Origin: a virus
Taxonomy: Duplodnaviria; Heunggongvirae; Uroviricota; Caudoviricetes
IMG/VR virus record: IMGVR_UViG_2778261535_000012
Span: 1-36,784 of that record
Length of the DNA: 36,784 nt
Reading direction: 5' to 3' (one strand)
Position 1 is the first letter of the stretch, and each line of letters opens with the position of its first letter. Made by a program: the position numbers and the translations under genes. The notes below the pieces were generated by a model. That model was not told where the DNA came from. It did no database searches and worked only from the letters and a program-made list of their open reading frames with translations. Of the stretch, positions 17,527-19,082 are shown piece after piece.

Positions 17527-17706
17527 TCAGGCTGAGGACTCTTTCGCGCCTTCAATCAGTGACTGCTTCAGTAATTCGAGTGTACCAATCGCCTCGCATA
17601 AACTGATTTCACCATCGTAATCATGGATGACGCTTTCCAGCCGCTCGTATAGCTCTTGAGTAATTGGGAATTTCTTCTCCTTACTCAAATTGATTACGCG
17701 GCTCAC
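17527..17706 (-). CDS. Small hypothetical ORF (59 codons, GTG start)
   Basis: GTG start preceded by GGAG at 6 nt spacing, immediately after the upstream ORF stop; below the ORF-track cutoff. Confidence 0.3.
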   Translation of the reverse strand: MSRVINLSKEKKFPITQELYERLESVIHDYDGEISLCEAIGTLELLKQSLIEGAKESSA

Positions 17707-17707
17707 A

Positions 17708-17950
17708 TCATGCTCCGGTGGTGAACAGGTCTAACGCTTCCTTCGATTTACGCACCGCTTCGATAGTTCTGGTCGTGATATCTGAATTAGCGCCGCCTGA
17801 CTGGAAGTGAATTTTGAATAGCTCAAGCTTCAGCTCGTCAGTACCAATGAATTGAAATGCTTCTTCTGCGGCTGCGTTCTGGTTCATGACCAGTTTGTAA
17901 ATCTCTAACTGGAATTTCTGTTCTTCAGTCATGGGAATAATCTCTGCCAT
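17708..17950 (-). CDS. Hypothetical protein
   Basis: 80-aa ORF in the late operon between KilA-N gene and terminase genes. Confidence 0.5.
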   Translation of the reverse strand: MAEIIPMTEEQKFQLEIYKLVMNQNAAAEEAFQFIGTDELKLELFKIHFQSGGANSDITTRTIEAVRKSKEALDLFTTGA

Positions 17951-18206
17951 TGTTGGCTCCGTTTATCCGTTAAAAGGGATATCAGTTAAGTTATCCCGTG
18001 TAGGGTATAAGCCATTGTCGAGACCACTCATTGAATGGTCTCTGCAATAACCGATGTCTTTCCATCAGTCCGCCACCACAAAGAATCTTTTTTGCCATAA
18101 GGCTGGAGGTTCATCTTTCAGTGGCTGCCAGTGTTATTTCCCCACTTACTGGCTTGGGTTGTTTCGCTGTACTGCCGTAATGCAAAAACTGGATTAACCT
18201 GCGAAA

Positions 18207-18737
18207 TCACACCATTCCGGGCAAATACATTTGCACTTCATTTGCCACTCTCTCACGTGCAACATGAAGCAATCTTTTTCGCCCACCAACGCCCCACTTA
18301 GCCATTTGGCTTGCGCACTGGCTTATCGCTTTGGTTTCAGTATTGATGATGTGATCGATTCTATTCAGACGGGACATTGCGCCAACGCCGAGACGGACAA
18401 CCGTTTTGAAAACTTCATAAACTTCGATTTCAAATTCCGGCTTAATCCATGCTGCATATCTGATTGCCAGAAGTTCAACACCCCACACACCTGGTTCTGC
18501 ACCACCTTTGATTATTTTAAGTGGTTGAATTTGTTCCAAAGTGCTTTTTTGCACTTTGGCCTCCAGTGCTTTTATGAAGCGTTTTATCTGCGCGCTACGC
18601 AAAAACTGGCTTGGGCGCTGTTGCTCTGTAGCCTCTCCATTTGCAACTGCTGCTGCATGGAGATCGTTTAAGTTGTAGCGTCCATCCTCATCAACACGAA
18701 CGGACACACCATTGACAATAACTGTTGGGTACTTCAT
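18207..18737 (-). CDS. KilA-N domain protein (moron)
   Basis: N-terminal pattern (VRVDEDGRYNLNDLHAAA...) typical of KilA-N/Bro-N DNA-binding domains; lies between lysis genes and terminase. Confidence 0.65.
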   Translation of the reverse strand: MKYPTVIVNGVSVRVDEDGRYNLNDLHAAAVANGEATEQQRPSQFLRSAQIKRFIKALEAKVQKSTLEQIQPLKIIKGGAEPGVWGVELLAIRYAAWIKPEFEIEVYEVFKTVVRLGVGAMSRLNRIDHIINTETKAISQCASQMAKWGVGGRKRLLHVARERVANEVQMYLPGMV

Positions 18738-18884
18738 CAGTGATTACCTTTTAGTGATGAACCTTGTCACACAGGATTCCGGCCCACAGAAAGGCACCGA
18801 TCACCAAACCGGCATCCTCAAGGGTCATCCTGAAAGGTTCTGTGTTCAGAAGTCGCGCGTGTGAAGCGCGTTTGTTGCAGATAT

Positions 18885-18908
18885 AAAAAAGCCCCGCGAA
18901 TGCGAGGC
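18885..18908 (-). terminator. Candidate intrinsic terminator downstream of Rz
   Basis: Minus strand GCCTCGC-ATT-GCGGGGC (7 bp stem with one G-U pair) followed by TTTTTT. Confidence 0.45.
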
Positions 18909-19082
18909 TAAATCCTGGTGTTTGTGATGACTGGCTCTTATCTCAACGCAGCCCCTTACCGCGCGCAAGATGCTCAATATCAAGCATCAGCAATGAGATG
19001 TTTAATCTGGATTCACTCCAGAAGTGATCACCACCCTGTCTACAGAGCCAGATGTGAAGGATGATGAGTAAAATTATCGCTA

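Follow-up and report, generated by a model that had tools for sequence, protein, structure and literature searches.

A mosaic accessory region between the lysis and terminase genes of a P22-like prophage, with a KilA-N gene and a covarying hairpin

Introduction

In P22-like phages (Lederbergvirus), the region between the lysis gene Rz and the small terminase gene is already annotated in HK620, P22, Sf6, epsilon34, SE1 and ST104, and the work on the P22 moron pid already showed that it contains a dispensable moron site. Here we analyze this segment, positions 17527 to 19082, in a 36,784-nucleotide stretch of Caudoviricetes DNA (IMG/VR record IMGVR_UViG_2778261535_000012), the whole of which is called the window below. 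The segment carries genes for a KilA-N protein, an 80-amino-acid DUF2560 protein (Orf80) and a 59-amino-acid protein (Orf59c), and an inverted repeat in the non-coding DNA behind the KilA-N gene. We read it, with a probability of roughly 0.6, as a mosaic accessory region in the late operon of a P22-like prophage, in which the KilA-N protein would be a late modulator with an ORF11CD3-like end and a hairpin would stand at the cassette ends. The additions to existing annotation are modest, namely the ORF11CD3-like C-terminus that links the KilA-N protein to Rha, and a boundary hairpin that covaries and is strand-specific.

In HK620, the genes hkbK-hkbL-hkbM-hkbN lie between Rz and gene 3, with the same position, order and strand as in the window. 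The hkbM, hkbN and small terminase genes, together with 228 bp of backbone, are 98.5% identical to the window, and HkbK is likewise a KilA-N protein, with a C-terminus that is an ORF11CD3 domain. However, HkbK and the KilA-N protein of the window share 26% identity (BLASTP over the full length, E 2e-17), hkbL, an additional gene after hkbK, is missing from the window, and the DNA of the two cassettes is unrelated. P22 has orf80 and orf59c at about 95% DNA identity and the same backbone with its hairpin and 'orf25'. The slot homologous to that of the KilA-N gene is filled by Rha, with which the window protein would share an ORF11CD3-type C-terminal module, while the N-terminal domain of Rha is pRha and not KilA-N, and the divergent pid moron inserted in P22 is absent from the window. 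The same 176-amino-acid KilA-N cassette and its leader are found at 92-94% DNA identity in the Salmonella phages UPF_BP1, SE1 and ST104 (orf45), but these phages have dec or orf118/orf129/dec downstream, a P22-type small terminase, and different lysis genes upstream.

A more distant comparison is bor of phage lambda, an accessory gene located after Rz and before the packaging genes, which lies on the opposite strand and has a promoter of its own that is used in the lysogen. Unlike bor, the genes of the window are co-oriented with the late operon, and no promoter was detected for them.

Mosaic structure of the segment

All genes of the segment are co-oriented on the minus strand, between a Q-like gene and the lysis genes on one side and the terminase genes on the other. 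In minus-strand order, the Q-like gene (20734-21357), holin, endolysin and Rz with embedded Rz1 are followed by the segment, the small terminase, the large terminase and the portal gene. A preliminary description of this DNA had reported a KilA-N open reading frame (ORF), an 80-amino-acid ORF and a 59-codon ORF with a GTG start between Rz and the small terminase; all three are present on the minus strand, and as stated there, none of these genes has an assigned function. The description did not mention a 50-amino-acid ORF in front of the cassette, or Rz1 within Rz.

In BLASTN comparisons, the segment is 92-98% identical to HK620, UPF_BP1, Sf6, Sf101, epsilon34 and P22 where sequence is shared, and these phages together with SE1 split it into three blocks. 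The first (17001-18178) is a backbone common to nearly all reference phages at 93-98% identity, and contains the small terminase gene, orf59c, orf80 and 228 bp of non-coding DNA in which P22 has its annotated 'orf25'. The second (18179-18908) is the KilA-N cassette, common only to UPF_BP1, SE1 and ST104-type phages (92-94%), and the third, from about 18854-18921 upward, comprises Rz and the gp65-like ORF. Homology breaks recur at 18178-18180, 18029-18053 and 18854-18921.

To describe the slot, 80 IMG/VR loci encoding an identical or near-identical DUF2560 protein were fetched, and the content between Rz and DUF2560 was classified. In this set the slot has at least seven different contents, or is empty, and 87 related loci compared in all show its contents to be swappable. 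It holds Rha (pRha and ORF11CD3) in about 29 of the 80 loci, HkbK with or without HkbL in about 12, the KilA-N gene studied here in about five, and a T5orf172/MUG113 protein in three; Tad2-like proteins, other small ORFs or nothing make up further contents. In two loci (L156 and L196) the terminator is joined directly to the DUF2560 leader. A second sub-slot adjoins DUF2560 (DUF551 protein, Sf6 gp66 family), and the P22 pid moron maps to about 17965-17992 of the window. In the direction of transcription, the layout runs from Rz/Rz1 over the gp65-like ORF, a terminator and structured leader, the swappable slot and the non-coding backbone to Orf80, Orf59c and the small terminase gene.

Over the central 1.8 kb, the window and E. 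coli PM4-5 are 100% identical. Of 5426 complete E. coli genomes, 3012 contain parts of this sequence, and only 25 have the full combination. The window and PM4-5 (NZ_CP096834.1) are identical only around the segment; the holin region (19900-21900 compared) has 88.6% identity, and PM4-5 is longer by about 590 bases between its Q-like and holin genes. Therefore, the window represents a different, mosaically related prophage from the one in PM4-5.

The KilA-N protein

Residues 9-113 of the 176-amino-acid protein match Pfam KilA-N (PF04383) at 64.8 bits against a cutoff of 23.8, which is the sole Pfam domain seen, and the protein matches PHROG 129. It has 458 homologues across Enterobacterales, of which the 120 best have 70-99% identity and are mostly 170-181 amino acids long.

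The preliminary description had suggested a domain search of the C-terminal half. The Pfam model itself gave no match there, but residues 123-176 or so look like a divergent ORF11CD3 domain. The evidence goes through HkbK, the full-length relative introduced above. The C-terminus of HkbK matches that of P22 Rha (E 2e-8), and Pfam ORF11CD3 is found in P22 Rha, HkbK and Sf101 Rha. A local hidden Markov model (HMM) of the Rha and HkbK C-termini picks up residues 124-175 of the KilA-N protein (E 0.0015), and hhalign aligns the KilA-N family with the ORF11CD3 module end to end over 53 columns, up to the last residues (75.6% probability, E 2.4e-5). An HMM built from close KilA-N homologues alone found nothing beyond its own family; thus, HkbK was needed as a bridge. 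Collectively, the C-terminal third looks like a divergent ORF11CD3-like module rather than a proven member of the family.

The head of the protein differs from that of Rha, as Pfam Rha (PF09669) gave no pRha match in the KilA-N protein, and direct BLASTP against P22 Rha was not significant. The KilA-N protein would therefore be an analogue of Rha by position, with a DNA-binding head of another type, and not a member of the Rha family. By analogy, it would bind DNA and, like Rha, act through its ORF11CD3-like module as a late modulator that the phage can do without. The only known phenotype of Rha is inhibited phage growth in hosts lacking integration host factor (IHF), as related second-hand in PMC4936722. 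The ORF11CD3-like module ties the KilA-N protein to P22 Rha. The IHF consensus WATCAANNNNTTR has no match anywhere in the window.

KilA-N, ORF11CD3 and related domains belong to the domain-swapping 'Bro network', which also includes the P22 Ant domains, ANT and AntA (PMC10111431). This membership would also fit an antirepressor, i.e., a protein made late that binds the repressors of resident or co-infecting heteroimmune prophages and induces these prophages, or that locks lytic commitment. Several database records (H61, H71) call the rha gene in the same slot an 'anti-repressor', and trans-acting antirepressors are documented in Salmonella prophages (PMC3121763). However, these labels are annotation only, no experiment is known to tie Rha or HkbK to repressor inactivation, and the KilA-N fold binds DNA and is not known as a module that binds repressors. 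Additionally, the window contains a sar RNA (Rfam RF00262) at 2036-2103 on the plus strand with 95.6 bits, the sole Rfam family above threshold in the whole window. The prophage therefore carries a P22-type immI/ant region, which is the usual place of the antirepressor in P22-like phages. We consider an antirepressor role for the KilA-N protein unlikely, and prefer that of a late modulator analogous to Rha.

Expression of the segment

The sole strong terminator of the segment lies upstream of the KilA-N cassette. A terminator scan found a G+C-rich hairpin (18890-18909) followed by a T-run to 18884 on the transcribed strand, in the sense direction of the late operon. Its stem is kept in divergent leaders while the loops differ, and the homologous site of epsilon34 is annotated as a rho-independent terminator. 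The preliminary description had seen this hairpin correctly, within what it took for a long intergenic region (18738-19082); that region in fact holds the 50-amino-acid ORF and the cassette leader. In an alignment of 16 leader variants, the leader is also found 5' of Rha genes in other phages at 84-94% identity, and it therefore behaves as a module of its own.

No sigma-70-like promoter was detected with a consensus scan, either in the 146-nucleotide leader (18738-18883, minus strand) or in the two non-coding stretches, although weak promoters are possible with this type of scan. The hairpins downstream of the KilA-N gene do not have a proper U-tract, and the one followed by TTTT at 17972-17997 is weak, so the gene has no terminator of its own behind it. 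In the lysogen transcriptome of prophage BTP1, only bstA, cI, pid, gtrA and gtrC exceed 100 transcripts per million, and the rha gene that BTP1 carries in the same slot is not among them. Because the genes are co-oriented behind a terminator, no promoter was found, the leader forms a module and rha of BTP1 remains below this level, transcription by a Q-modified polymerase reading through the terminator appears more likely than moron-type expression in the lysogen. A block without promoters of its own would then be transcribed only when RNA polymerase modified by Q/gp23 passes the terminator in lytic growth.

The preliminary description had called the site a moron hotspot. As an accessory hotspot it is well borne out by the 80 loci, and the slot also follows the definition of Hendrix and Juhala, as its contents are found in some phages and are missing from the corresponding site of close relatives (L156, L196). 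For the KilA-N gene itself, the name moron in the strict sense of an independently transcribed unit that is expressed in the lysogen is not supported, as the gene is co-oriented with the late operon, no promoter was found, and the intrinsic terminator is upstream of it and not downstream. The precedent named there, lambda bor, is apt for the accessory position after Rz, and P22 pid, which sits in the same backbone, is a closer one. The pid moron is transcribed divergently, with a weak promoter and a terminator of its own, and shows activity in carrier-state cells; Cenens et al. already described its site as a place of moron insertion that is empty in some relatives. P22 with a resistance cassette in place of orf25, pid and orf80 grows lytically and forms lysogens without loss.

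A KilA-N cassette that is a true moron would have a weak or regulated promoter used in the lysogen and benefit the host, for instance by a BstA-like abortive-infection defence. BstA of prophage BTP1 also has KilA-N as its N-terminal domain, and its gene belongs to a P22-like prophage (PMC8585504). The same region hosts the independently transcribed pid moron, and Tad2-like genes occur there in other prophages. The upstream terminator would shield the cassette from read-through that is not antiterminated, and the leader RNA folds better than shuffled sequences (z-score -2.99) and could hide a non-consensus promoter or a regulatory element. Nevertheless, while bstA shares a transcript with the repressor gene in the lysogen, the KilA-N gene is a gene of the late operon and encodes a much shorter protein, which has only the KilA-N part in common with BstA and no PADLOC match. 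It ends in the ORF11CD3-like module shared with Rha rather than in a separate effector domain. The leader has no promoter-like site, the gene runs in the direction of the late operon and pid in the opposite one, and the rha gene in the same slot is not highly expressed in the BTP1 lysogen. A true moron is therefore an improbable reading of the cassette, and late transcription by read-through is favoured.

The hairpin behind the cassettes

The preliminary description had regarded 17951-18206 as a long intergenic region. It is indeed non-coding, but instead of an empty spacer it is a conserved backbone with a structured hairpin. The inverted repeat GAGACCA-N9-TGGTCTC described there is present at 18020-18042, one base off from the reported 18021-18043. 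When the 256-bp gap is shuffled, 15% of the shuffles contain a perfect 7-bp inverted repeat with a spacer of 3-15 nucleotides; the repeat alone is thus not beyond chance. It extends with G.U pairs to a 10-bp stem, which 3.6% of shuffles reach, and beyond this to an outer helix.

The hairpin also covaries across relatives. Across 29 distinct sequences, 98.4% of cells are paired, compared with 40-54% in slid controls. Three pairs of the inner stem and one outer pair change on both sides, and none of 500 shuffles reached the observed pairing or covariation. When both copies per locus were included, 39 unique variants were obtained with at least five stem types, e.g., GAGACC../..GGTCTC, AAAGCC../..GGCTTT, AAGCCC../..GGGCTT, GGAGCTC../..GGGGCTTC and GCAGCCC../..GGGGCTGC. 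The outer helix also holds, with covariation from A-T to G-C. An uninterrupted stem of at least 9 bp is formed by 36 of the 39 variants on the sense strand and by 2 of the 39 on the antisense strand, where pairing fails because 65 of 367 pairs are G.U.

In its generic form, ATYRCA-stem-loop-stem-GAYAATG with a stem of 9-10 bp, the hairpin has a single copy in the 36.8-kb window. One copy is found in 45 of the 80 related loci and two copies in 30, and none of the 80 has a copy in antisense orientation. The copies lie directly 3' of cassette stop codons (hkbL, gp66 and a 95-amino-acid ORF) or of terminators. The recurrent homology breaks at 18029-18053 fall on the hairpin, and at the break at 18921 a remnant of its 5' flank (TCATCACAAA) is left. 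The hairpin has no counterpart in Rfam, and no family reached its gathering score in a scan of the segment.

Judged from these patterns, the hairpin is most likely an RNA element between cistrons that serves processing, stability or insulation, with flanks that are also crossover points; we propose this as a hypothesis. Such a role would be comparable to that of the RNase III sites between T7 genes, and the conserved flanks may give short homology for cassette exchange. A more specific proposal is that the hairpin ATYRCA-[10-bp covarying stem]-GAYAATG is dedicated to marking cassette boundaries and ends each promoterless cassette in this part of the late operon, acting as a signal for RNA processing or stability while its DNA flanks are preferred crossover points. 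We regard this as tentative, and as less probable than its opposite. If true, the region after the lysis genes would be a small gene-cassette array with an integron-like logic and no integrase, which would explain why anti-defence genes, morons and regulators gather there. A functional hairpin would also give a mechanistic handle on the exchange and expression of accessory genes, including Tad2-like counter-defence, in lambdoid late operons.

Alternatively, the whole block could be neutral cargo, consisting of recombination leftovers without selected function, and the inverted repeat a relic of a crossover site. The slot is empty in L156 and L196, P22 tolerates the gene replacements mentioned above, and the phage sequences are so alike (95-99%) that conservation alone tells little. 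On the other hand, the KilA-N family keeps its full length and 60 invariant residues across genera at 69-94% identity, relatives of DUF2560 are encoded in at least 573 IMG/VR stretches, and the hairpin pairs through at least five stem sequences on the sense strand only, which a relic would not do. Neutral cargo is thus very doubtful, and we retain the reading of a mosaic accessory region with a late modulator and a hairpin at the cassette ends.

Several points weigh against this reading. The ORF11CD3 assignment is based on transitive and profile-profile evidence, and Pfam ORF11CD3 (PF10549) does not match the KilA-N protein even when its isolated C-terminus is searched at E 1. The AlphaFold2 model of the protein (predicted local distance difference test, pLDDT, 54.7) is too poor for a fold search and gives no structural support. 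As proteins that combine KilA-N or Rha with ORF11CD3 have no known biochemical function, the role of a late DNA-binding modulator is an inference by analogy. The promoter scan covers the sigma-70 consensus only and could miss a weak or activator-dependent promoter; the P22 promoter Ppid itself has an eroded -10 box. Late expression is deduced here from the gene arrangement, the promoter scan and the transcriptome of BTP1. The hairpin sequences are closely related, the compensatory stem types may go back to a small number of independent events, and a hairpin in single-stranded DNA would give the same strand bias.

Other features of the region

The coordinates of all features are collected in Table 1.

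Table 1. Features of the segment and its flanks, in window positions
Feature	Position	Strand	Remarks
Rz	19083-19520	minus	
50-amino-acid ORF, Sf6 gp65 / epsilon34 gp67 family (probably coding)	18943-19095	minus	hydrophobic N-terminus; overlaps the Rz stop by 13 nucleotides
Intrinsic terminator	18884-18909	minus	8-bp stem with 6 G-C pairs, 4-nucleotide loop, T6
Conserved cassette-gene leader, 146 nucleotides	18738-18883	minus	second hairpin CGCGC-N7-GCGCG at 18854-18870; ribosome-binding site AAGG
KilA-N protein, 176 amino acids	18207-18737	minus	Pfam KilA-N; divergent, ORF11CD3-like helical C-terminus (residues ~123-176)
Conserved non-coding A module, 128 bp	18053-18180	minus	present or absent as a unit
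Interrupted hairpin, ~39 nucleotides	18012-18050	minus (sense)	outer helix TTATTG/CAATGG; 2x2 internal loop CA/GA; 10-bp stem GAGACCATTC/GAGTGGTCTC; loop AAT
Second small hairpin	17972-17997	minus	GGGATA-N10-TATCCC followed by TTTT; in the DUF2560 leader
DUF2560 protein, 80 amino acids (P22 Orf80, HK620 HkbM, Sf6 gp67)	17708-17950	minus	Pfam
59-amino-acid GTG ORF (P22 Orf59c, HK620 HkbN, Sf6 gp68)	17527-17706	minus	GGAG ~8 nucleotides upstream
Small terminase, Sf6-type	17081-17509	minus	

The 50-amino-acid ORF is annotated by PGAP in PM4-5, as gene 65 in Sf6 and gene 67 in epsilon34, and likewise in Sf101. It matches PHROG 11822 over 50 of 50 residues (E 4e-38). Its substitutions by codon position (24/15/41) lean towards coding, and a stop codon is present in 2 of 19 protein variants; on this comparison the ORF is probably coding.

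Within the leader, a 25-codon hydrophobic mini-ORF (18751-18828), of which UPF_BP1 annotates a 54-amino-acid version, was discarded, since in divergent leaders indels break its frame and the start codon is missing. The KilA-N gene and Sf101-type rha genes have the leader and the first codons in common (MKYPT and MNYPT; window 18724-18737, minus strand), which places a recombination junction just inside the coding sequence.

The DUF2560 protein matches its Pfam family (PF10834) at 147.7 bits against a cutoff of 25, over residues 5-76. Its gene is the most conserved of the block, and the family is restricted to Enterobacterales. AlphaFold2 predicts a four-helix protein with fair confidence (pLDDT 81); this model has no match in the PDB at E 0.001 or better, and BFVD gives only uncharacterised viral proteins. 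The 59-amino-acid ORF starts 1 nucleotide past the DUF2560 stop codon, and its only match is its own family, PHROG 3546 (59 of 59 residues, E 9e-42). Relatives of phage L have orf129 and the decoration gene dec in place of Orf59c. NCBIfam and PADLOC gave no meaningful match for any of the four small proteins.

In the backbone, the A module is bounded by mosaic junctions at 18178-18180 and 18051-18053. At least 90% identity to it is seen in 165 phage records, of which nearly all reach 95% and some belong to lambdoid siphophages. Together with the hairpins, the module folds as RNA well below shuffled sequences (z-score -3.90). The second small hairpin looks like a weak terminator; 99.4% of its cells are paired, with pairing-preserving variation from G-C to G.U and an unpaired cell in one sequence. 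Two candidate ORFs were rejected as coding on account of frame-shifting indels and non-synonymous variation, namely a 35-amino-acid ORF beginning MAKKIL (17991-18098, the 'orf118 N-terminus') and a 30-amino-acid ORF across the A module.

Side observations on the slot concern its occupants in other prophages. Between gp65 and DUF2560 (loci L151, L155, L134 and L201 were considered), some related prophages encode a protein of 159-173 amino acids with a Tad2-like (Thoeris anti-defence 2) domain, with a Pfam E-value of 3.9e-26 for the one that was scanned. Other related prophages have genes of the DUF551, T5orf172/MUG113 and N4 gp49/Sf6 gp66 families in the same region. By eye, the N-terminal 60 residues of the T5orf172 protein gp68 of epsilon34 (L005, 1291-1776) resemble HkbL of HK620 (L001, 2405-2662), which suggests a further domain swap among slot occupants.

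A stretch at 18123-18194 on the minus strand resembles the Proteo-phage-1 RNA (Rfam RF03044), scoring 23 bits against a gathering score of 42. It has the motifs AAGCCNG..AGUG and AACAC.GGCAGCC and, by eye, a possible compensated loop-tail pairing GCCAG/CUGGC. The first helix of the model straddles the 18178 mosaic junction and is lost where other cassettes are present, the match is repeated only in the phage that has the KilA-N cassette in common, and true members are located beside nin-type genes instead of behind the lysis genes. The resemblance is probably due to chance, or at most a remnant. Bona fide Proteo-phage-1 motifs were observed in at least 120 viral contigs (L009-L128), shortly downstream of a co-oriented gene run, which in L110 comprises NinB-like and NinG genes and a 225-amino-acid gene without assignment. 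Since Q and the late leader of lambdoid phages are located at this place, Proteo-phage-1 may be a leader RNA of the late operon.

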